From an uncultured bacterium (GTDB taxonomy: Bacteria; Chloroflexota; UBA5177; JANWHV01): 64,000 nucleotides of DNA. The stretch spans positions 416,001 to 480,000 of the forward strand of contig CAWHAE010000018.1 in NCBI GenBank assembly GCA_963827235.1, read 5' to 3'. This document shows, one piece after another, positions 1 to 14,456 of this stretch. Position numbers and translations under genes: made by a program. Numbering within the stretch: the stretch's first letter is position 1; every line of letters begins with the position of its first letter. A model generated the notes under the pieces. The model made no database searches. It worked only from the letters and a program-made list of their open reading frames with translations, and was not told the DNA's origin.

Positions 1-214
1 CGGCAGGCATGCCGCCGCAGGCCGCGGAGAACACGACCGGGACGAGAAAGAGCAGCGGAATACTCAGGCTCAAAGCGCCACTCGTACCGTTCAGGACGCT
101 CAGGACCGGGACAAGGAATGCTACCAGGGCCAGCCCGGCCACGCCGGCACTGCGCGGACGCCGCGCCAGCACGTCGGTGCTGATCCCGGCGTCATGAAAC
201 ACTTTGCCTGTCAA
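1..214 (-). CDS. 5' end of a DUF4118 (KdpD-type transmembrane domain) sensor protein, probably a histidine kinase; runs off the window
   Basis: Manual minus-strand translation, absent from the ORF track: ...AGLALVAFLVPVLSVLNGTSGALSLSIPLLFLVPVVFSAACGGMPA, resembling DUF4118 helices. Co-oriented downstream of kdpA. Start is TTG 214 or GTG 202. Confidence 0.55.
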   Translation of the reverse strand, partial: MTGKVFHDAGISTDVLARRPRSAGVAGLALVAFLVPVLSVLNGTSGALSLSIPLLFLVPVVFSAACGGMPA

Positions 215-273
215 TCACGTCTCGCTTTCGTGCCGCTGGCATGGCCGTGGTACCGGAGGCGCCGTCATACTCG

Positions 274-981
274 CTAATGAAGCCGGTCAACCGGCAATAG
301 GTATGCCGGCCGCCGGCGAGGCGCCGGTCGTTCCATGACACGCGCCTGGTCACCGTCTACCACGATAGTCTTGCATGGCGCCGTTCTCTGCACGATCTGG
401 GAGATGCTGCCGAAATACCAGCGGCGGAGCGCGGCATCGCTCGTGTGTCCGAGCACGATCAGGTCGCCCTGCTGCTCCTGCTGCGCTTCTATGCGCGCGC
501 TGTTCGCCAGCACCGCCTCCAGTCGCTCGCTGCTGCACCGGGCTGTCTGGGCGAGCCGGGTAACCTGCCGCCCGTAGTCGCGGTCCTCGGGATGTGGGCA
601 AGCGCTGCGATGGAGCACGCCCAGCCTCCTCTCCAGCATCTGCAGGTACCGTGCCCGGTCGGCATTGCTCAGCGCGTAGTGCTGCCGGTACGTCCCCAGG
701 GCCCAGGAGAGCCCTTCGCTGGCGCGGTAGTGGAAGAACGCGGCCAGGACGGTGCTGTCCACGCCCAGGCCGCTGGCCAGCTCGAATACCTCTTGCTGCC
801 CGAGTGGCGGCAGGCGGCGCAGCTTGACGAGCATGGCAGTCGATACGCCAAGCCGTCGGGCCACGTCCGCCGTGGTCAGCGCGTCTCGGAAGACGAGGCC
901 GTCCTGCTTGCCTTCATCGCCCGACTCGTCGCGCGAGCCGGATTCGGCAACCGGCGCCATGTGGTACGTATGCCCTGCCAT
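274..981 (-). CDS. Hypothetical regulator: N-terminal HTH fused to a C-terminal partial universal stress protein (USP) motif
   Basis: Real start is ATG 981, inside the 274..1866 ORF and just after the kdpA stop. HTH-like LTTADVARRLGVSTAMLVKLRR; USP C-terminal signature DLIVLGHTS...FGSISQIVQRTAPCKTIVV. Confidence 0.7.
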   Translation of the reverse strand: MAGHTYHMAPVAESGSRDESGDEGKQDGLVFRDALTTADVARRLGVSTAMLVKLRRLPPLGQQEVFELASGLGVDSTVLAAFFHYRASEGLSWALGTYRQHYALSNADRARYLQMLERRLGVLHRSACPHPEDRDYGRQVTRLAQTARCSSERLEAVLANSARIEAQQEQQGDLIVLGHTSDAALRRWYFGSISQIVQRTAPCKTIVVDGDQARVMERPAPRRRPAYLLPVDRLH

Positions 982-1001
982 GGCAGTCTCTCTTCTCACT
1001 T

Positions 1002-2723
1002 CTACAGGCGTAGCTGCTCGATGATCGGCCCCAGCGCGACGATCGGCAGGAACGTGAGCGCTCCCACAAGCAGCGCCGTGCCCACGATCACCGTGGCGAA
1101 GGTCGCCGAGTCGGTGGGCAGCGTAGCTGCCGAGACCGGCCGCCGCTGCTGCCTCACGAAGATGCCGGCCAGGGCAAGGGCCAGCACGCCCAGTCCGAAA
1201 CGTCCCAGGAGCATGGCCACCGCGGTGGTGAGATTGTAGAACGGGCTGTCGCCTGAAAGACCGGCGAACGACTGGCCGTTGTTCGCCATGTTGCTCGTGT
1301 AGGCGTAGAAGATCTCCGTCAATCCGTGGGGTCCGCTGTTGGTGGTCAGGCCGGCCCGTCCGGCAGCGGTCGACACAGCCAGCGCGGTGAGCGCCAGCAG
1401 GGCCACCGGCGCAACCAGCGTGTAAAGCATGACCACTTTGATATGCGCCGGGCCGATGGTCTTGCCCAGGTACTCCGGCGTGCGCCCGATCATCAACCCT
1501 GCCACGAACAGGCCCACCAGGACGACGAGGATGATGCTGTACAGCCCGGTGCCCAGGCCGCCGAACACCATCTCGCCGAGAATCATGTTGACCAACGGCA
1601 CGAGCCCTCCCAGCGGCGTATAGCTGTCGTGCATGGAATTGGTCGAGCCGGTGGCCGTGTTCGATGTCACGACTGCCGTCAGCACGGAGTCGGCAATGCC
1701 GAAGCGGACCTCCTTGCCTTCCATGTTGCCGCCCGGCTGGCTCGTGGTTGCCGCGGTCGCTGCGCGCGCCTGGCGTGCGATGACCGGGTTCCCCTGCTGC
1801 TCTGCCAGGTTGCACACCACCAGGCCGGCGACAAAGAGGAAGACCATCACCCAGAGCAGCACCCACCCCTGGCGGGTCCGTCCCACCATCTGACCCAATG
1901 TGTAGGTCAGCGCGGCCGGTACGACCACGATCGACAGCATCTCGACGAAGTTGGCCAGCGGCGTCGGGTCCTGGTAAGGGTGTGCGTTATTCACGTTGAA
2001 GAACCCGCCGCCGTTCGTGCCGAGGTTCTCGATGAACTCCAGCGCGGCAACCGGTCCCTGGGCAATGGTCTGCCGGCCACCCTCCAGGGTATGCACGACG
2101 GTGTACGGGCTCCAGCTCAACGGCACGCCTTGCCACACCAGGACCAGCGCCCCGACCACCGACAGTGGAAGCAACACCCAGAGCAGGCCGCGCACCAGGT
2201 CCACCCAGAAGTTGCCAAGCCCCCTTGCTTGCTGGCGGGCCAGCCCACGGATGAAGGCAATGCCGACCGCCAGCCCGGCGGCGCCGGCGAGGAAGTTCTG
2301 CGCCGCCAGGCCCACGATCTGCGTGACGTAGCTCATGGTCGACTCGCCGCCGTACGCCTGCCAGGTGGTGGTCGTGGCGAAGCTCACCGCCGTGTTGAGG
2401 GCCAGATCGGACGTCATCGGCGTGCTGAGATAGGCGCCGTTGTTCCAGGCATAATGCGACTGCAGCAGCAAGATGGCAAACAGCAGTGCGGTCCCCGCCA
2501 GCCCGAAGACGAGGAAGGACAGCGCGTACTCGGCCCAGCCCATCTCGTGTGTGGCATCGACACCGGCCAGCCGATAGATCCGGCACTCCACGGGGCGCAG
2601 AAGGGGATCGAGGAAGGTGCGATGCCCGGTAAACACCCGGGTCAGGTAGCTGCCTAACGGCTTGACAAGCGCGACGACGATCAGCACGAAGAGTGCGTAC
2701 TCGGTCAGGGCAGCCGCACTCAT
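1002..2723 (-). CDS. kdpA: Potassium-transporting ATPase subunit A (KdpA), variant without neighbouring kdpB/C
   Basis: Motifs WQAYGGE, GNFWVDL, LGTNGGGFF, NMEGKEVRFG, FGGLGTG, GRTPEYLGK, ALGPIIE. GGGAGG RBS favours ATG 2723 over GTG 2729. Confidence 0.95.
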   Translation of the reverse strand: MSAAALTEYALFVLIVVALVKPLGSYLTRVFTGHRTFLDPLLRPVECRIYRLAGVDATHEMGWAEYALSFLVFGLAGTALLFAILLLQSHYAWNNGAYLSTPMTSDLALNTAVSFATTTTWQAYGGESTMSYVTQIVGLAAQNFLAGAAGLAVGIAFIRGLARQQARGLGNFWVDLVRGLLWVLLPLSVVGALVLVWQGVPLSWSPYTVVHTLEGGRQTIAQGPVAALEFIENLGTNGGGFFNVNNAHPYQDPTPLANFVEMLSIVVVPAALTYTLGQMVGRTRQGWVLLWVMVFLFVAGLVVCNLAEQQGNPVIARQARAATAATTSQPGGNMEGKEVRFGIADSVLTAVVTSNTATGSTNSMHDSYTPLGGLVPLVNMILGEMVFGGLGTGLYSIILVVLVGLFVAGLMIGRTPEYLGKTIGPAHIKVVMLYTLVAPVALLALTALAVSTAAGRAGLTTNSGPHGLTEIFYAYTSNMANNGQSFAGLSGDSPFYNLTTAVAMLLGRFGLGVLALALAGIFVRQQRRPVSAATLPTDSATFATVIVGTALLVGALTFLPIVALGPIIEQLRL

Positions 2724-2960
2724 GGTCACAACCCTCCCGCCGGCCGCCCGTGCTCAGACCAAGCAGAGCCTGCACCGGCGGAGTGAGCTCCGCGCTTGGC
2801 GGCGCCCGCGCGCGGGTTCGCTGCATATGGGCAGGCGCGACCGGCCGGACGTACACGTTGCGAACATCTCTTCCGCATCATAGGCGGCCCGGAAGCCGCT
2901 ACACAGGCTAGCGTTCGCCCGATCCTTGACTTCAGGGCCTAGGCACAACGATAGAACCCG

Positions 2961-3014
2961 CATGTTAACCAGGTCGTAAACGGCAAAGGCCGAAGTCGTA
3001 AACCGATCATCAAC
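2961..3014 (-). promoter_or_regulatory. Phased direct repeats (OmpR/KdpE-type boxes) upstream of kdpA
   Basis: GTTTACGAC (minus strand) at 2973-2981 and 2995-3003, 22 bp apart. Degenerate copies at 3006-3014 (+11) and 2961-2969 (-12). Confidence 0.55.
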
Positions 3015-3214
3015 GGACGGCATGGCCAGGGCAAGCGCGCGATACCACGCTCCGTTCAGAGGCGCAACCGGACCGGCCGCCTACCGCCCGCCTGACGCGA
3101 ATAGCGCGCCTGTTCGCGGAGGACGCACCGGGCCGAGCGCTGCCGGCCGCTGAACCGGACGGAGAGCAGATCCCGCCTCCATCTCAGGCGTGGAGGCCGT
3201 TTAGCGCGCGGTTA

Positions 3215-3844
3215 TCAGGCGCGCACCAGGGGCAGGAAGATCGTGTCGACGATCTCCACCAGCGTCGCGTCGGGAACCGGCGCCTGGGTCATGATCAGGT
3301 CGTGTCGAACCAGGTCCATCGGCAACGAGCAGATGCGGGGGCTCAAGCGCCGAGAATCGATCTCGCCGCGTGCCACGGCGCGCGCGATGATCGTCGCTAT
3401 GCCCGGCCTGGGGATCTCGGAGAGGATCCGCTCCCGCAACGCAGCGGGTGAGAGCCCGGTTTCGCTGAGCGCGCCGGCGATGAGGAAGCTCAAGACCGCA
3501 GCTTCTTCGCCGCGCCACGTGGAGATGTGCCGTAACACGGCTAGGAGGTCGTCTCGCAGCGTCCCGGTATCCGGAAACTTGACCATGTTGATCGCGGCGT
3601 GCTGACGCAGCGCGGCGATCACCAGCTCCGGACGGCTGGGCCAACGCCGGTACAGGACCGCGCGGCTCGTCCTGGCACGGGTGGCGACGCCCTCCATGGT
3701 GAGGGCCGCGTATCCCACCTCCGTCAGCTCATCCCAGGCTGCCTCCAGCAATGCGGCTTCGAGCGCCGGACCGCGACGGCGCTTTGGCGCGCCGCGCCGC
3801 CGGCCGGAGGCCGGGCCAGCATCCGAGATCCCGGTGGCTGCCAT
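3215..3844 (-). CDS. TetR/AcrR family transcriptional regulator
   Basis: HTH ALTMEGVATRARTSRAVLYRRW; C-terminal PDTGTLRDDL; divergent from an MFS gene. Confidence 0.93.
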   Translation of the reverse strand: MAATGISDAGPASGRRRGAPKRRRGPALEAALLEAAWDELTEVGYAALTMEGVATRARTSRAVLYRRWPSRPELVIAALRQHAAINMVKFPDTGTLRDDLLAVLRHISTWRGEEAAVLSFLIAGALSETGLSPAALRERILSEIPRPGIATIIARAVARGEIDSRRLSPRICSLPMDLVRHDLIMTQAPVPDATLVEIVDTIFLPLVRA

Positions 3845-3855
3845 CAATCCCCCCT

Positions 3856-3939: not shown

Positions 3940-5382
3940 GTGACTACTACTGCTGAGAACGAACGCCTGGACCCTGCGTTGATCAAGCTGGCCGCCATTC
4001 TGCTCACGGGTGTCATGGTGGTGATGTTCGACTCGACCATCGTCAACGTAGCCTTAGAGACGCTGGCGCGTGCGCTGCACGCCCCGGTGTCCACGACCCA
4101 GTGGGTGGTCAGCGCGTACGTGCTGTCGCTGGGCATGGTAATTCCGGTCAGTAGCTGGGCCATGCAGCGCTTCGGCGCCAAGCAGATGTGGCTCGGCTCG
4201 TTGGCCCTCTTCACGGCGGGGTCGCTGCTCTGCAGCACGGCGTGGAACATTGACGTCCTGATAGCGTTTCGCGTGCTGCAGGGCATCGGCGGAGGCATGA
4301 TGCTGCCGATCATGCAGACGCTAATGGTCGAAGCCGCCGGTGGACGCAAGCTGGGGCAGATCATGGCGATGCTCGGCCTGCCGGCGCTGCTCGGCCCGAT
4401 CCTCGGGCCGGTGCTTGGTGGCCTGGTCATCCACTACCTCTCGTGGCACTGGATCTTCTGGATCAACGTGCCCCTCGGCGTTCTCGGCCTGCTGCTCGCC
4501 TGGCGGGGCTTGCCATTGTCTCCGCCTCGCCCGGGCGCACGCCTCGACGTCGTCGGCCTCGCGCTGCTATCGCCTGCCCTGGCCACGATCATCTACGGTC
4601 TCACGGAGGCCGGCAGTCGCGGCGGCTTCGGCCAGGATAGCGTGGTGATACCCTTGCTGGCCGGCGGCGCGCTGCTCGTCGTCTTCGTGCTGTACACACT
4701 GCGCACCACGCTGCCGCCGGTGGTGGACCTGCGGTTGTTTCGCGTTCCCTCGTTCACCGCGTCGGCCGTGCTGCTCTTTCTGTCGGGCTTGGCGCTCTAT
4801 GGCGCCTTGCTGCTGTTGCCGCTCTACTATCAGCAGGTGCGTGGACAGGATGCGCTGGCGGCGGGGATTCTGCTGGCGCCGCAGGGGCTTGGCATGCTTT
4901 GCACCCGCGCCCAGGCCGGCAAGCTTACCGACCGTATTGGCGGGCGGCCAGTCGTGCTCGGAGGATTCCTGTTGACCCTGCTTGGAACGCTCGCCTTCAC
5001 GCAGGTCGGCGTCGCCACGAACGAGTTGTGGCTCTGCCTCAGCCTGGTGGTGCGCGGCGCCGGGTTGGGCGCGGTTTTCGTTCCGATCATGGCCACGGCC
5101 TACCTCGGCCTGCGACCCGACCAGATCGCCGATGCCAGCAGTGCCACGCGGATCCTGCAGCAGGTCGGGGGCTCGTTCGGCGCGGCCGTGTTCGCGATGA
5201 TCCTGCAGTCGCAGCTCACTGCGCACCACGCGATCACCCTTGCCGGCCAGGTCACCGCCTTCGACAATGCCTTCTGGTGGTCGGTTGGGTTCACCGCCCT
5301 GGCCATCGTGCCGGCGCTCGCCCTGCCCGGCGCCATGCGGCTATCGCTACGCGCCGAGAAGAAGGCGGGCACGGCCGCCTGA
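3940..5382 (+). CDS. DHA2 (EmrB/QacA-like) MFS efflux transporter
   Basis: FDSTIVNVAL, QWVVSAY, FRVLQGIGGG, WHWIFWINVPLG; about 14 TM helices. Confidence 0.93.
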   Translation: MTTTAENERLDPALIKLAAILLTGVMVVMFDSTIVNVALETLARALHAPVSTTQWVVSAYVLSLGMVIPVSSWAMQRFGAKQMWLGSLALFTAGSLLCSTAWNIDVLIAFRVLQGIGGGMMLPIMQTLMVEAAGGRKLGQIMAMLGLPALLGPILGPVLGGLVIHYLSWHWIFWINVPLGVLGLLLAWRGLPLSPPRPGARLDVVGLALLSPALATIIYGLTEAGSRGGFGQDSVVIPLLAGGALLVVFVLYTLRTTLPPVVDLRLFRVPSFTASAVLLFLSGLALYGALLLLPLYYQQVRGQDALAAGILLAPQGLGMLCTRAQAGKLTDRIGGRPVVLGGFLLTLLGTLAFTQVGVATNELWLCLSLVVRGAGLGAVFVPIMATAYLGLRPDQIADASSATRILQQVGGSFGAAVFAMILQSQLTAHHAITLAGQVTAFDNAFWWSVGFTALAIVPALALPGAMRLSLRAEKKAGTAA

Positions 5383-6874: not shown

Positions 6875-7103
6875 GTTCGTTCCTCCCCCGGCGTGCAGCG
6901 ATACGCACTCGCATCAGTATATCGGTACGAGTGTCCGTCCGGGAGCCACCGCCCCCGGTAGATCCCGCCTGGACGTTGTGAGGCGGCGATATCCTGTCTT
7001 GCGACAATGCAGGCCACGGCCGGCATGGCCGGAGCCGGCCGTGGCCCCATTCTCGCCGGGCGGAATCCCCGGTGCACGGAATGTCGGTCCGCCCCCGGGT
7101 GGC

Positions 7104-9626
7104 TCAGCGCTTGAGCACCACGATCGTGGTGCTTGCATTGCCTGTCACGAAGTCCTTGCCGTCGCGAGGCGTGAACGTCACGCGTAGCGTGTGCGTGCCC
7201 ACCGCCAGCTTTGTGCCGAACGACGGGCTGTACCGGTACGTTCCGGCCAGCGCGAAGCCCTGGAAGGTGGCCCTGGCGTTCAGCTGGCCGCTGCCGAGAG
7301 CAGTACCCGACGTGATCACGATCTTCTTGGCCCAGGCGATGGCCGGCTTGGCTTTGGCGATGCTGAACGTTACCGGCGCCACGGACACCGCAGCGTAGTT
7401 CTTCGTGCCGGGCTGCATCGCGGACACGCTACAGCTACCAGCTCCCGTGAGCGAGATCACGTTGCCGCCGCTGCCACCCACGCGGCACGCACCCCGCACG
7501 GCGTACTTCGTGGTCGTGCGAGCCGTGTTCCCGCTCACGGCCACTTTGAAGGACGCGTCGCCGTAGGTGTGATTGGGGATACGAGCCAGCACCACGCGCG
7601 GTATCGCCTGCAGGACGGTGATCGTCGTGGAAGCCGCCGCCTGCTCCCAGTCATTGCCGTTAGCCGGCACGAACGTCGCGCGCAGGACCTGGTTCTTGCC
7701 CACCTGCAGCATGTTGCCAGCCGCCGGCGAGTAGTGGAAAGAGCCAGCAACCGGCGACCGGGCGTCGAGCTGTGAGGAGCCCAGCCGCGTGCCGTAGCGA
7801 ATGTTCGCCGGCTTGGCCCACGTCACTGTTGGTAGGCCGCGGTCGATAGTGAACGTCTCCGACACGGGCTCGGCGGCGGCGTACGAAGCGTTGCCGGCCT
7901 GATAGGCGCGCACCGTGCAGCTGCCGGCGCCGGTCAAGCTGATCGTGCTGCCGTTGGCACCGGTCGCGGTGCAGTTGCCGGAAGTCTGGAAGGTCACTGG
8001 GTTGCCCGAGCTGCCGCCCATCGCGGTGGCCGTAAAGGGAGCGTCGCCATAACGATGGTTGGCAATGGGCGCCAGCTGAATGATCTGCTGCACGAGCGGA
8101 ACCGGCGTCGAGGTGGGCACGATCGTCATGGTCGACGTGGCAGACGGTGTGACGGTGCTGGTGGCCGTCGTGACCGCCGTCGCCGTGGCCGTGTCGGTCA
8201 CCGTCGGCGTGGGCGCGGCAGGCAGGGGCGCGGTGAGCACCCACTTGAAGTACGGATAGCTCTGGCCGTCGTCGATGTTCCAGGTTGAGGTCAGGTCCCA
8301 GCCCGCAGCCGTGTAGGTGCTCTTGGCAATCATGTCGCTCGTGCGGTCGCCCACGCCGATAGTGCCATAGGCACAGCCGCAAGCGGTGAAATCGAAGAAG
8401 CTGGGGACCGTGTTGTCCACGGAGCTGTTGACCTTGCGGCCGATCAACCCGCCGATGTAATCGGACGTGTCGCTGCCCGTCACGGCGCCGGCGCTGTACG
8501 TCTCGCTGATCGTGCCTATGGTGGTGCCGAGGTTGTCTTCTCTGCCCACCAGTCCGCCGATGCTGGAGTGCGTGCCCCCGGTTACCGATCCCACGTGGTA
8601 CGACCTGCTGATCGGTGCTCCGGAATAACCGACCAGCCCGCCGGCGCTCGCCGAATCCACCGGATAGCTGATCGTACCCGTGCTGTAGGACTGGCTGATC
8701 GCCGTCTCGCTCGTGCCTATGAGGCCGCCGAGCGTGCCGCCGCTGGCCTGGCCGGTCACCGATCCCGTGTTGTAGGAGCGAGTCAGCGCGCTGGGGGAAT
8801 GACTCGAGCCCAACAGCCCGCCGGCAGCGCTGCCGGAGGCTACCACAGGCCCGCTGTTGTAGCTCTGGTCCACGGATCCGCTCACGAGAATCCCCACGAG
8901 GCCGCCGACGTAAGAGCTCGCGGCAGTTCCCGTGACGGGGCCGGTGTTGTAGGACTGCGCGATCGTTCCACTCTGGCTGGCGCCGGCAAGACCGCCGACC
9001 CTAGCCGCCGTACCGATGATAGCGGCAGTGTTATGGGATCCCGTTATGGAGCCGGAGTTCGTGCCGATCAAGCCTCCCAGGTTGGAGCCGCTCGAGGCGC
9101 TCACGGTCCCCGCGACGTCGACCCCGCTCACCGATCCCTTGCTCATGCCCGCCAATCCGCCAACGGTCATGTTCGATCCGCCGGCAACGGAAATGCCGGT
9201 GAGGTGGAGGTTTTCCACCGTGGCCGTCGTGTCGAGAGCACCAAACAGCCCGATCGGGTTGGAGGTGGACTGCGCGATCGAGAGATTGGCGATCGTATGG
9301 CCCTGCCCGTCGAACGTGCCGGTGAACGGCGTCGAGGCCGTCTGCCCGATCGGCGCGAAGGGCGTGCCGAGCGCCGCCAGGTCGATGTCGTTCTGCAGAC
9401 AGTAGTAGCCCGCGAGCGCCGCAGTGCTCAGTCCTATTGACTGGAGCTGCAGTGCCGTGCTGATCTGCGTGCAGACCACCGCCTGTCGCTGGCGCGCCAC
9501 GCTTCCGTGGGCAGCCGGCGCCGGCGCCAGCACGCCCACCGCTATCGCACACGCCGCGCCGGCGCGGATAAGCCTTCGGGTGCCACGCGTTGTCCGCGGC
9601 AGATACGGATCAGTTCGGCCGCCCAT
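7104..9626 (-). CDS. Secreted surface protein with GLUG repeats, a Thr-rich linker and C-terminal Ig/MBG-like repeats
   Basis: Signal peptide; FTGTFDGQGHTIANL; many VGGLVG and SYNTGPVTG repeats; PTPTVT linker; duplicated NH(R/T)YGDA.F and W...I..GT.LGS.QL.A units. Confidence 0.85.
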   Translation of the reverse strand: MGGRTDPYLPRTTRGTRRLIRAGAACAIAVGVLAPAPAAHGSVARQRQAVVCTQISTALQLQSIGLSTAALAGYYCLQNDIDLAALGTPFAPIGQTASTPFTGTFDGQGHTIANLSIAQSTSNPIGLFGALDTTATVENLHLTGISVAGGSNMTVGGLAGMSKGSVSGVDVAGTVSASSGSNLGGLIGTNSGSITGSHNTAAIIGTAARVGGLAGASQSGTIAQSYNTGPVTGTAASSYVGGLVGILVSGSVDQSYNSGPVVASGSAAGGLLGSSHSPSALTRSYNTGSVTGQASGGTLGGLIGTSETAISQSYSTGTISYPVDSASAGGLVGYSGAPISRSYHVGSVTGGTHSSIGGLVGREDNLGTTIGTISETYSAGAVTGSDTSDYIGGLIGRKVNSSVDNTVPSFFDFTACGCAYGTIGVGDRTSDMIAKSTYTAAGWDLTSTWNIDDGQSYPYFKWVLTAPLPAAPTPTVTDTATATAVTTATSTVTPSATSTMTIVPTSTPVPLVQQIIQLAPIANHRYGDAPFTATAMGGSSGNPVTFQTSGNCTATGANGSTISLTGAGSCTVRAYQAGNASYAAAEPVSETFTIDRGLPTVTWAKPANIRYGTRLGSSQLDARSPVAGSFHYSPAAGNMLQVGKNQVLRATFVPANGNDWEQAAASTTITVLQAIPRVVLARIPNHTYGDASFKVAVSGNTARTTTKYAVRGACRVGGSGGNVISLTGAGSCSVSAMQPGTKNYAAVSVAPVTFSIAKAKPAIAWAKKIVITSGTALGSGQLNARATFQGFALAGTYRYSPSFGTKLAVGTHTLRVTFTPRDGKDFVTGNASTTIVVLKR

Positions 9627-10857: not shown

Positions 10858-12318
10858 TCAGTACACGAGCACGGTCGTACCCACGGGCGCCCAGTTCCAC
10901 AGCCATACCATGTCGGACAGCGGGATGTTGACGCAGCCGTGGCTGCCGACCGGCTCGCCCGGATCCGTCGAGTAGTGCGGAAGGTTCGTGCCAGGGCCGT
11001 AGACGCTGCGCCACGGCGAGTCGTGCAGGCCGTAACCCTGGAAGAACGGCATCCAGTAGCGAACCGGACTCGGTGGGTAATAGAACGGAGACCCCGCCGG
11101 CCAGGGGGAGATGAAGGTGAACGGAGTCTGCTTGAGATAGACATGAAAAACGCCGTGCACGGTCGGCAGCTCAGGCCGGCCGGTCGTGACGTAGTTTTCG
11201 TGCACGAGCACGCCGTGATCGAACTCGCGAAGCACCTGGCCCTCGGTAGAGACGACGATCACCTTGTCGGGGACGCTGCTGAAATACTTGCTCAGGTCCA
11301 CGGGCGGATCGATGGGCGTGGCCAGCCGATCGAACCCGCCGGCCGTAAGACCAAGCGGTCCGGGGCGAAGCACGAAGGTGGTGCGCGCCGTACGCTCGTC
11401 CAACCCGCTCGCCACCTGCACGGTGACCTTCGTGACGCCTTGGTGCTTGATCACGAGGAGCAACGGCGTCGAGTAGACCCAGCGCCCGTACTTGTCCGCC
11501 ACGCCCGTGCCGGACAGCACGACTGTGCTGGTGACAGCCATCGTCAGCTTGATCGCGGCGCCGGGCTTGGTAGAGACGAATACGCGAATACCGTCCCCCG
11601 CCCGCACGGAGCGAGTAGTCGTGGACACGAAGAGGACCAGCGGCGGCCGAGGAGTGAGGTCAAAGCGCGCCGTGCGCATGCGCGACCCGTTCACTGTCGT
11701 GACGGTCACCGCGGCGGTCGCCTCGATCGTGGTTTTCGGCAGTACCGTATCAAGCATGTCGATCACGGACCGCCCCTGGGAGTCCGCGGTGCCGGAGCCG
11801 GTGCCGACGATACTACCCGCGCTCGTTCTGACCGAGTAGGTGAAGCCTGCATTCGGCGCCGTGCTGACGAACAGCCCAACTGGCGTGCCGGCCTCGAAAC
11901 GCGCGTGAACGGCCTGCACGAAGAGCGGAGGCAGCCGAGGGGCGGATATCGTGAGAGTGCCCTGCCACTGTGCGGAGCGCGATCCCCGCGCGGCGGCGAC
12001 ACGCATACCGGCCACGCCGGTGAGCGCCGTGCCGCTGGGCACGACCCAGGAGAACACGTAGCGGCCCAGCGTGTCCGTCGAACCCTTGAAGACACTGGTG
12101 AGATTGTCCGCGTAGGCCACGGTCAGCGTCACCGAGGCGAAAGCGCCCGAATGCACGAATACGCTCGCACGGCTGCCCTGCACGACGGCCCGCTGCAGCG
12201 GCGAGACCTGCAGCGTCAGCACTGCACCGGCTGGACCGCCGGTGGCTCCGGCCTGAACGGACGGTAGCGCCCAGAACACCACGACAAACCCCAGCACCCA
12301 ACGCAACGCACGCGACAT
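10858..12318 (-). CDS. L,D-transpeptidase (YkuD family) with three N-terminal Ig-like repeats
   Basis: VTTGRPELPT, YGLHD, GSHGCVN catalytic motif, PVGTTVLV; signal peptide from ATG 12318. Confidence 0.92.
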   Translation of the reverse strand: MSRALRWVLGFVVVFWALPSVQAGATGGPAGAVLTLQVSPLQRAVVQGSRASVFVHSGAFASVTLTVAYADNLTSVFKGSTDTLGRYVFSWVVPSGTALTGVAGMRVAAARGSRSAQWQGTLTISAPRLPPLFVQAVHARFEAGTPVGLFVSTAPNAGFTYSVRTSAGSIVGTGSGTADSQGRSVIDMLDTVLPKTTIEATAAVTVTTVNGSRMRTARFDLTPRPPLVLFVSTTTRSVRAGDGIRVFVSTKPGAAIKLTMAVTSTVVLSGTGVADKYGRWVYSTPLLLVIKHQGVTKVTVQVASGLDERTARTTFVLRPGPLGLTAGGFDRLATPIDPPVDLSKYFSSVPDKVIVVSTEGQVLREFDHGVLVHENYVTTGRPELPTVHGVFHVYLKQTPFTFISPWPAGSPFYYPPSPVRYWMPFFQGYGLHDSPWRSVYGPGTNLPHYSTDPGEPVGSHGCVNIPLSDMVWLWNWAPVGTTVLVY

Positions 12319-12571
12319 TCTGAACAATCCCTCTATCGTTGTCCGCGAGGCATCGAAAGTCGGCCGCCGGAGCACGCCGTGCTGCAGCCCTCAGCCATTC
12401 GCATTGTACCATTCGCCCTGGAAGCGCCGCGCGACGCCCGCGAGGCAGGTGTCCCCCGGCTGCGGGCGACCCATGGCCCGTCGTCGGCGGCGCGCAACGC
12501 CAAGTATGCTATTTCGATTCCGGCCGGAGTGCTCGCCGCGGCGGGCCACGGAGGGAAGCGACGATGTCCGC

Positions 12572-13070
12572 CTACGCGGTGGGTCGCCTCACCATGGTGT
12601 ACAGTTCCAGCACCAGCACCAGCGCCACTGCTGCCAGCGCCGCGCTGACCGCCATGAACGCCGAGAACCAGAATGGTGCCGGAAATGCGTGCTGCAGGAA
12701 GGCGAGAAGCATGGAGAAGCTGAACCACACCTGACCGGCAACCAGCAAGGCTGCCCCATAAGCTCCGCAAACCGCCATCCAGCGGCGTTGGGCGTCCAGC
12801 GCGGTGGCACAGGTGGCCAGGGGCGAGAGCATGAATGCCGTGCCGCCCATGCCCATGGCGAGCCCTTCCAGCCAGCCGATCGGCCCGAGCGACCCCATGC
12901 GGATTACGACCACGAAGTACAACACGAAGCTCGAGGGCAAGCAGAATGGAGGTCACCCGGATCGCCGAGTACGCGCGGGCCAATCCCTGGTGCTCGGGGG
13001 CGACCTTCCGAGGCCACCAGATATCCAGGGGCACGCCAATAATCCAGCCGATCAACACGGGGATCATCAT
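12572..13070 (-). pseudogene. Small membrane protein with a +1 frameshift near 12932-12945 (possibly a sequencing error)
   Basis: AGGAG RBS and ATGA overlap with the upstream gene. MMIPVLIGWIIGVPLDIWW...ILLAL continues as SFVLYFVVVIRMG in another frame; span is 3n+1. Confidence 0.6.
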
Positions 13071-14456
13071 GGTATTTCTCCTATGAGGTCGTCGACGAAC
13101 TGTCGGGCGGATCTGCAGGATCGCCCGCTGTGCCACAGGGCCCACTGGATGGCTCTGCGCCGGATCTCATCGCCCGGCAACGCGACGCCATGCGACAACG
13201 CCAGGGAGGTCGCGATCGTCACGTAGCGCTCCTGATCGGGCGACGGGAAGGCAACCTGAAGGCCGAAGCGGTCGGCCAGGGACAGCTTCTCTTCCATGGT
13301 GTCGCGCGGACGTAGCTCGCCGGCGCTCGCCGCCTCGCGATCGGAGAACCGCTCGTTCACCAGGTGGCGGCGATTCGTAGTCACGTAGAGCACGACATTC
13401 TGCGGCCACGCCTCGATCCGGCCTTCGAGCGCGGACTTTAGCGACTTGTATTCGGTCTCCTGCTCCTCGAAGGACAGGTCGTCCACAAAGAGGATGAATC
13501 GCTGCGGATGGTCCCGCAGCAGGCCCAGGACCCTGCGAAGGTCGTTCAGGTCGATCTTTGCTCAGCTCGACCAGCCGCAAGCCCCGCGCGGCGTACGCAT
13601 GCAGCAGCGCCTTGACCGTGGACGATTTGCCCGTGCCCCGCTCGCCATAGATCAGACAGTGCTGCGCGGGCAGGCCGGCAACGAAGCGCTCCGTGTTGCG
13701 AAGGAGCGGCGCCCGCTCGGCGTCGTAGGCAACCAGGTCGTCCAAGCGGACCGGATCCGGATGGAGCTGCGCCTCCAGGCTGCCGCCACCGGCAGCGATC
13801 CAGCGCGCGGCACGATGGCGAGAGAAGAGCCCGAGCCCGTGCCTGTGCCAGTGGCCGCCCAGGTCCTCCGCGAGGGCGCCCCAGTCGAGCGCCGTGCTGA
13901 GCCGCGTTGCCATGGCGAGTCGCGGCTCGTCGCCGGACGCAGGCTCGGCTAGCTCGCGCCAGGGCGCCAGCGCCTCGGCCAGGTCGACGCCTGCAAGCTG
14001 GACCACGGCGTCGCGAAGCGCCTCCGCGCCGAGCGAGTAGAGCCACTGCAGACCACGCAGATCGCGTCGTGCCTGATCCAGCAGCGACGACGGAGCGGCC
14101 TCGAACCCGGCTCGCTCGACCAGCTCGCTGAACGGATTCCGGCAATCGATCACGCGCCAGAGAAGCTGCGATTGCCAGGCATCGGCACCCGGTACCGCCG
14201 GCGCAGCGGCTTCGGCGAGCAGTGCAAACACCCGAGCGTACGCCGCCGCGATGACGCTGCCCCGGACCGGCGTCTCCGCCAATCCACCTTCGGCCACCGG
14301 CCGGGCGTCGAGGTACTCCAGCAGGCGCAGGAACGCCTGGCTCACCTCGTCGTCCAGCACCTGGCGAAACACCGTGACCGCCGACGCCCGGCGTCTGGCC
14401 GATCGGATCTGCTTGCCCAGCAGGGCCTGCAGAGATAGCTCTTTCGATCCGATCAT
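13067..14456 (-). pseudogene. DUF815 family AAA+ ATPase with a +1 frameshift near 13553-13559 (possibly a sequencing error)
   Basis: Walker A GERGTGKSS in one frame; FVDDLSFEE, YKSLKSALEG, TTNRRHLV and EEKLSLADRFG in the next frame. Confidence 0.88.

Follow-up and report, generated by a model that had tools for sequence, protein, structure and literature searches.

A clade of KdpA paralogues with altered filter residues and no kdpB or kdpF of their own, represented by a lone kdpA in an uncultured Chloroflexota bacterium

The bacterial K+ importer KdpFABC is the textbook channel subunit coupled to a P-type pump. In Escherichia coli, its channel-like subunit KdpA (PDB 6HRA, 5MRW, 7NNL) is encoded together with kdpF, kdpB and kdpC, and a recent study (PMC12629597, eLife 2025) identifies the S3 site of the KdpA selectivity filter as the main determinant of affinity and specificity. 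There, the substitutions Q116R and G232D in E. coli KdpA raise the Km by orders of magnitude, G232D permits coupled transport of Rb+ and NH4+, and KdpB is described as relatively promiscuous; the study concludes that the filter alone sets ion specificity, and that KdpB pumps whichever cation arrives. Here we describe a lone kdpA, which we term kdpA2, located in a 64,000-nt stretch of an uncultured Chloroflexota genome (G000:C18:416001-480000; hereafter, the window). It belongs to a clade of KdpA proteins, A2, whose genes come without a kdpB or kdpF of their own, co-occur and are partly linked with kdp genes, and carry fixed changes in the filter. A2 appears to be an undescribed group of KdpA paralogues, set apart by its residue signature and its gene neighbourhoods; a literature search, which did not extend to subscription journals and supplements, turned up no account of a KdpA clade without kdpB.

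Comparison with the closest described systems brings out what is unusual about A2. Its members resemble E. coli KdpA in their full-length alignment, Pfam family, filter glycines and D3M2 loop, yet differ from it in fixed filter swaps as well as in gene context. In principle, these swaps are akin to the laboratory mutations Q116R and G232D, in which a filter change alters Km or the ions transported (PMC12629597); unlike those mutants, A2 proteins keep both Q116 and G232 and carry natural, conserved swaps at other filter positions. With KtrB and TrkH, A2 shares membership in the superfamily of K+ transporters (SKT) and a four-repeat pore (PMC12629597), and likewise has no adjacent ATPase gene. 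Unlike KtrB and TrkH, A2 is a true KdpA (700 bits to PF03814) with KdpA-specific vestibule and tunnel residues and without a recurrent partner of the KtrA/TrkA type. Finally, PMC8886135 and PMC9062700 report that acidophiles can carry entire additional kdp operons; what they describe is not kdpA on its own. In Acidithiobacillia, these extra genes were horizontally acquired (PMC8886135), as was A2, but they form complete kdpFABC(DE) clusters, whereas at A2 loci only kdpA, or kdpC plus kdpA, is extra.

The window kdpA2 is a full-length, intact gene. Like the two reading frames that follow it, it lies on the minus strand, and it has two possible starts, a GTG at 2729 (575 aa) and an ATG at 2723 (573 aa). 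The latter is the likely one, as GGGAGGG just 5′ of it makes a good ribosome-binding site. The encoded protein covers positions 2-548 of the 548-position Pfam KdpA profile (PF03814) with 700.3 bits and aligns with PDB 6hra_A (E 4e-147; residues 7-573 against 5-556). There is no internal stop and no frameshift, and 171 of the 174 columns that are conserved in at least 95% of the clade are kept; the median for other members is two mismatches. The filter glycines G232, G345 and G468 and the entrance residue Q116 are in place (each in at least 0.99 of A2 alignment rows). By contrast, the canonical side chains N112, N114, S343, C344 and S469 are replaced by T, T, A, T and Q, giving the filter signature TTTTWQ, A-T-G-S, NNGQ. 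Identity to canonical KdpA is modest: about 50% to a second KdpA of the same genome, encoded on contig C15, 47-51% to full-length KdpA matches in 40 relatives, and a median of 0.50 over canonical KdpA sequences.

In a tree of 100 KdpA sequences (IQ-TREE quick, LG+G4, rooted by midpoint only), the window protein and those of loci L033-L039 formed the single clade A2, with full support in the Shimodaira-Hasegawa-like approximate likelihood ratio test (SH-aLRT 100) and a long stem of 0.53. Canonical KdpA proteins from Binatota and Myxococcota form the sister group (support 96). The C15 KdpA groups with its own genus and class. A2 is present in four phyla, though rare among species representatives, where the seven best loci, from Acidobacteriota, Verrucomicrobiota and Planctomycetota metagenome-assembled genomes, are 60-64% identical to the window protein and the other 73 kept are about 50% identical. 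A large protein collection yielded at least 120 A2 clusters at 64-83% identity, several of them named as Ktedonobacteria or Candidatus Acidiferrales. Among 400 other Chloroflexota, A2 was found in G351 (67%) and in G397 (65%, broken by a stop); a third candidate, G119 (57%), is of the canonical type, given its better score to the C15 copy and the kdpB that comes after it. A stricter first look at 400 other Acidobacteriota sampled around the A2-bearing genome G041 gave no protein of at least 57%, the next best being 53%. For comparison, samples of 401 Chloroflexota and 401 Acidobacteriota gave 98 and 140 genomes with kdpA, the latter number including the unpublished G550.

What sets A2 apart at the residue level became clear from an alignment of 153 A2 rows (the window protein counted twice) with 143 canonical rows, among them E. 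coli KdpA, which provides the numbering. Given as the frequency of the new residue in A2 over that of the original residue in canonical KdpA, the domain 1 filter strand shows N112T (0.99/1.00) and N114T (1.00/0.97), which turns TNTNWQ into TTTTWQ. The domain 3 strand shows T340S (0.99/0.99), S343A (0.88/0.99), C344T (0.99/0.87) and A346S (0.88/0.90), and the domain 4 strand S469Q (0.99/1.00), with A470 no longer fixed. Outside the filter strands, A2 carries S221A and Q222L in the pore helix of domain 2, S140A, A141G, I145L and A148G in helix D1M2, V376L and G382S in helix D3M2, and L507F and K510Q; position 386 changes from F/Y/M to V/I/A. The literature names KdpB F232, not KdpA F386, as a tunnel residue, and we treat position 386 as a clade difference only. 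The filter signature is uniform over A2 members, whether linked to kdp genes or solitary.

The remainder of the ion path is shared by both groups, including Q116, G232, G345, G468, E370, R400, R493, the GGxGxG loop and the segment GRTPEYLGK. A2 has E370 in 0.94, R493 in 1.00 and R400 in 0.97 of rows, and each glycine of the loop in 1.00. As in canonical KdpA, the vestibule pair E370/R493 is accompanied by a hydrophobic residue at position 496, here Leu in 0.97 of A2 rows; the roles of E370 and R493, and the placement of V496 facing the tunnel, are taken from PMC12629597. R278, which coordinates cardiolipin together with KdpB R651 according to PMC8385062, is even more frequent in A2 than in canonical KdpA (0.98 vs 0.78). 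To judge from its sequences, purifying selection clearly acts on the clade overall.

We next consider gene context, counting as A2 any locus whose KdpA is at least 57% identical to the window KdpA and scores better to it than to the C15 copy, which gave 41 loci including the window. The original prediction had remarked on the absence of kdpF, kdpB and kdpC around this kdpA, and had asked whether the missing genes lie past the left edge of the window or whether close homologues sit in intact kdpFABC operons. Contig C18 extends 416 kb to the left, and the first 16 kb contain no kdpB or kdpC, only the remainder of a sensor gene, a GNAT gene and unrelated genes; in the entire genome, KdpC and a kdpB above the family cut-off occur on C15 only. 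As for homologues, kdpB directly follows 143 of 146 canonical kdpA genes but none of the 31 A2 genes with at least 1 kb of downstream sequence. With both of these possibilities gone, the lone kdpA represents a genuine gene type that recurs, rather than a rearrangement confined to this locus. Upstream of the window gene, neither a KdpF-like open reading frame (ORF) was found (the grand average of hydropathy is -0.35 for the most suitable small ORF close to the start) nor, within 300 nt, the KdpF C-terminal motif, which agrees with the prediction.

Where A2 genes do have recurrent neighbours, these are mostly kdp genes. Six of the 27 loci with at least 600 nt available have kdpC directly 5′ of A2, and a true kdpB is present in four loci (L132, L228, L147 and L146), whose arrangements are given in Table 1. 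The KdpD N-terminal domain, KdpD(N), occurs in five of the 41 loci. In a count of neighbours, only kdp genes (10 loci), DUF2254 (5 loci) and KdpD(N) (4 loci) recur, and no new conserved partner gene was seen beside A2. We also asked whether the A2-adjacent KdpC proteins form a single clade, which was not borne out: four cluster together (support 97), but the KdpC of L135 is that of an ordinary operon, and the tree needs four changes.

Some of the neighbours deserve mention in their own right. The DUF2254 membrane-protein gene lies downstream of kdpA2 in five loci (L137:8547-9878(-), L146, L151, L139 and L038), in four of them on the opposite strand, which may reflect shared ancestry of the loci. 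Genes for outer-membrane beta-barrels (BBP2 porin, Phenol_MetA_deg) directly adjoin kdpA2 in Verrucomicrobiota and Acidobacteriota loci (Table 1), which hints at a paired outer-membrane entry route. In L228 of genome G351, a 679-aa ORF without Pfam match (11492-13531(+)) begins at the kdpA2 stop and fills the gap to kdpD(N). This is either a so far unknown gene or, just as conceivably, an artefactual ORF of high-GC sequence.

The search for a second kdpA that the original prediction called for led to a complete kdp locus on contig C15, in the order kdpF, kdpA, kdpB, kdpC, a gene for a universal stress protein (USP), a KdpD(N)-USP gene of 440 aa and the top match to KdpE. A clear KdpF precedes this kdpA. 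No other kdpB above the NCBIfam cut-off, no other KdpC and no other KdpD N-terminal domain were found in the genome. Pump and A2 genes thus share a genome, and this is no peculiarity of G000: each of the ten A2 genomes tested (G000, G041-G045, G806, G807, G351 and G397) has one kdpB above the TIGR01497 cut-off.

These observations bear on the possibility that KdpA2 acts as a pump-independent K+ channel or uptake protein, as its SKT relatives KtrB and TrkH do. Such a function could be read into the lack of an adjacent kdpB, kdpC or kdpF at most A2 genes, the long A2 stem branch, the fixation of V376L and G382S in the D3M2 intramembrane loop region, the change at position 386 and the loss of the K510/K511 pair. 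However, the GGxGxG loop, which closes the cytoplasmic side in KdpA, is fully conserved, and strong constraint persists on the charge pair of the vestibule and on the residue that faces the tunnel. Nor does a KtrA/TrkA-like gene recur beside A2, while the pump is also present in 10/10 genomes, and some A2 genes sit within kdp operons, in L132 as the only kdpA. An ATPase-independent channel, the first option of the original prediction, found no positive support, and we consider it distinctly unlikely.

We instead favour, with about even confidence, a reading in which kdpA2 encodes a spare K+-channel-like Kdp subunit that works with the resident KdpB rather than alone and has an altered affinity or selectivity. 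KdpA2 would take the place of canonical KdpA on the single KdpB ATPase, encoded with KdpF and KdpC on C15. The ion would then enter by the remodelled filter of KdpA2 and pass through the conserved vestibule (E370/R493) and the tunnel to KdpB, and the exchange would give the same pump another affinity or ion preference. Since in the E. coli pump the filter sets affinity and selectivity and KdpB takes several cations, a KdpA2 swap would be expected to change the preference of the pump. We infer both that KdpA2 assembles with KdpB and that the filter swaps alter function. The fit of this reading comes from the co-occurrence of the pump in every genome tested, the membership of some A2 genes in kdp operons, the one case as sole kdpA, the retained hand-over residues at the interface and the concentration of changes at specificity sites; the co-occurrence, the operon membership and the retained residues make an alternative KdpA subunit the best of the three options originally proposed.

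Several findings weigh against a spare subunit. Kdp genes are close to A2 in a minority of loci, with kdpB or kdpC within 2.5 kb in 10 of 41 and most A2 genes solitary, so that co-regulation with the pump is unsupported for the window gene; the context counts also leave out the window's nearest relatives (68-83% identity). No A2 gene is accompanied by kdpF: the KdpF C-terminal motif was found upstream of 0/39 A2 loci as compared to 156/194 canonical ones, using a pattern of our own that counts a few loci twice and misses the KdpF of E. coli itself. The K510/K511 pair, present in 0.99 and 0.90 of canonical rows, is lost in A2, which could mark a lost contact. The co-occurrence with kdpB rests on ten partly related genomes, and in one of these, G041, stop codons interrupt the canonical kdpA and kdpB, which may be assembly errors or may mean that A2 there lacks an intact partner.

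As extra KdpA genes that are natural, conserved and horizontally spread, the A2 genes fit closely with the modularity concluded in PMC12629597. Pump-less A2 genes with a rebuilt filter in pump-bearing genomes are what one would expect if cells exploit this modularity. More speculatively, and on balance improbably, interchangeable KdpA "cartridges" might aim one P-type ATPase at different cations or concentration ranges. Were this the case, A2, with its Thr-rich filter and Gln469, would make Kdp an ATP-driven importer of another monovalent cation, for example NH4+, or a K+ pump working in another regime. There is a bearing on annotation as well: A2 genes now carry the plain name "potassium-transporting ATPase subunit KdpA".

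A second type of extra kdpA came to light in the same survey. In L077:3681-5369(+), L189:386-2086(+) and L185:10499-12241(-), a kdpA without its own kdpB adjoins a canonical kdpABC; these are the three canonical-type exceptions in the count of downstream kdpB. Their proteins are 47-50% identical to both KdpA copies of G000 and carry the filter changes N114S, T230G/S, N231D, C344D and N466T, two of which introduce acidic side chains. Extra KdpA proteins with altered filters thus probably arose more than once, to judge from these sequences, and such a repeated origin would strengthen the modular reading. On the improbable cartridge idea, the acidic filter (N231D, C344D) would serve yet another ion. 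In addition, L087:1461-5472(+), beside a canonical kdpA-B-C, and L147:7958-11948(+), beside kdpC-A2, are kdpA-kdpB pairs that have diverged far from the G000 proteins (35-36% and 56% identity); they show E370N and W115I/L.

As to the origin of the window gene, contamination of the bin as a source of the second kdpA was ruled out: PyrB, encoded 3 kb to the right of kdpA2, occurs as a single copy and shares 92, 89 and 82% identity with its counterparts in three same-genus genomes. To the right of window position ~5950, the DNA is syntenic with that of the same-genus genome G001, whereas to the left of it synteny disappears, and none of four same-genus genomes (83-92% complete) encodes a KdpA more than 51% identical to that of the window; three have one canonical copy, and in the fourth none was found. 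By these comparisons, kdpA2 lies in a non-syntenic segment within a native contig.

The surroundings of kdpA2 in the window are summarized in Table 1. The gene order announced in the original prediction, that is, a full-length kdpA, a 235-aa ORF 20 nt further on and then the start of a DUF4118 sensor, was borne out by ORF and Pfam analysis. The split and rearranged KdpD-like regulatory set suggested there, however, does not amount to a functioning system.

Table 1. Features of the window around kdpA2 and selected arrangements at other A2 loci
Feature	Position	Strand	Basis or arrangement
Start of an apparently broken KdpD-C-type sensor kinase	1..214	-	runs left past the window edge
C-terminal 63 residues and stop of the 235-aa ORF; half USP domain	274..465	-	Pfam Usp
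N-terminal 172 residues of the 235-aa ORF; helix-turn-helix-like stretch	466..981	-	homology to ~188-aa hypothetical proteins
kdpA2, intact KdpA paralogue of the A2 clade	1002..2729	-	Pfam KdpA, PDB alignment, tree, signature residues
Spacer between TetR gene and kdpA2, 485 nt	2730..3214	-	KdpF, Rfam, promoter/terminator scans
TetR gene	3215-3847		upstream of kdpA2
MFS transporter	3940-5382		divergent, beyond the TetR gene
L132			kdpB-kdpC-A2; A2 is the sole kdpA of this operon
L228 (G351)			kdpA-kdpB-kdpC, 1 kb, A2, 2 kb, kdpD(N)
L147			kdpC-A2, then divergent kdpA-kdpB-kdpC
L146			A2 on the opposite strand to a canonical operon ~2 kb off
Beta-barrel gene by kdpA2	L037:1-912	+	
Beta-barrel gene by kdpA2	L135:730-2379	+	
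Beta-barrel gene by kdpA2	L036:2029-2901	-	
Beta-barrel gene by kdpA2	L038:924-1601	+	

The 235-aa ORF, which runs from an ATG at 981 to 274, had been described as a gene for a fusion of a helix-turn-helix (HTH) with a USP domain. Its two parts stand: an HTH-like stretch was assigned by eye from TTADVARRLGVSTAMLVKLRR, and the sole Pfam match is the C-terminal half of Usp (28.1 bits against a cut-off of 24; profile positions 72-140 of 141), that is, not a complete USP domain (PF00582). What did not stand is the fusion as a recurrent gene. A search of 5.8 billion proteins returned five homologues of 178-188 aa (P0124-P0128), with local alignments of 53-76% identity over ~70% of the query and 51-71% in a multiple alignment. 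Similarity stops at about residue 172, and none of the five has the USP tail; nor was a full-length relative found in 40 related genomes. Based on these three observations, the "fusion" is a chimera or junction product specific to this genome, in which a USP piece was joined in frame to an HTH gene. The predicted structure has a mean predicted local distance difference test (pLDDT) score of 53.5, with residues ~31-90 helical at pLDDT 61-87 and the USP tail below 50. As to the source of the tail, its best match, to the USP-domain end of a KdpD(N) protein, is not significant (E 0.14). Residues 1-172 match no Pfam family, and the ~188-aa family to which they belong (window 466-981(-) and P0124-P0128) is, its HTH-like stretch apart, without a Pfam family and seen only in metagenomes.

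The sensor ORF starts with TTG at 214, 59 nt past the 235-aa ORF, and continues left to C18:415120 with DUF4118 (70.7 bits) and GAF (GAF_3, 43.1 bits). After GAF the frame shifts, with HATPase_c found in another frame (C18:415400-414885) and no HisKA match in either. Comparison with an intact paralogue at G000:C12:331718-333538 (DUF4118-GAF-HisKA-HATPase_c, HisKA 64.6 bits), which is 62% identical over the N-terminal part, shows that 335 nt are gone, H-box included, and with 335 not divisible by three the frame shifts. Barring an assembly error at this point, the C18 sensor is, on this comparison, a pseudogene. KdpD is split in this lineage, that is, into a KdpD-N/USP protein and a DUF4118-GAF-HisKA-HATPase kinase. 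This split is normal, since the C15 locus shares it with relatives L111, L047 and L201. The window sensor is of the kinase type; unlike a functional split KdpD, however, it is frameshifted and without HisKA, and the USP portion is a 63-residue remnant on an unrelated gene. The C12 kinase probably serves the C15 locus as its functional KdpD-C partner, though encoded far away; the best KdpE match lies on C15, not beside it. The two damaged regulatory neighbours probably play no part in kdpA2 function, and the decayed genes are not to be taken for a new regulatory system. Overall, the interpretation first given to this locus is thus partly supported.

One might still suppose that KdpA2 is a non-transporting, K+-binding co-sensor that informs KdpD signalling proteins of external K+. 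In the window, a USP remnant and then a KdpD-C-type sensor come after kdpA2, and a KdpD N-terminal/USP gene directly follows A2 in L037 and L133 and is nearby in L135, L228 and L147. Yet these five are the only such loci among the 41, the window sensor is broken, a pure sensor would not need the conserved tunnel and vestibule, and the literature searched offered no precedent, all of which makes a co-sensor highly improbable.

The damage next to kdpA2 (a chimeric ORF and a frameshifted sensor without HisKA) also raises the question of whether the locus is a silent, decaying leftover of a horizontally acquired kdp-like island, with kdpA2 as its last intact gene. The loss of synteny with G001 and the failure to find A2 in the four same-genus genomes would suit such a history, as would the 485-nt spacer, which contains no promoter-like or terminator-like site and no riboswitch (no Rfam match at E<0.3). 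Against this stand the undamaged reading frame of kdpA2, which is as well conserved as is typical of clade members, its good ribosome-binding site and the purifying selection on the clade, and we regard a silent leftover as the least probable of the explanations weighed here. Among sequencing runs, one DNA run has a 0.05 share of sampled words, and no RNA run is listed. Further to the right, synteny with G001 is also broken between window positions 6875 and 9685, where a minus-strand gene (7104-9626) encodes an 840-aa repeat-rich, probably surface-located protein that is not conserved in G001.

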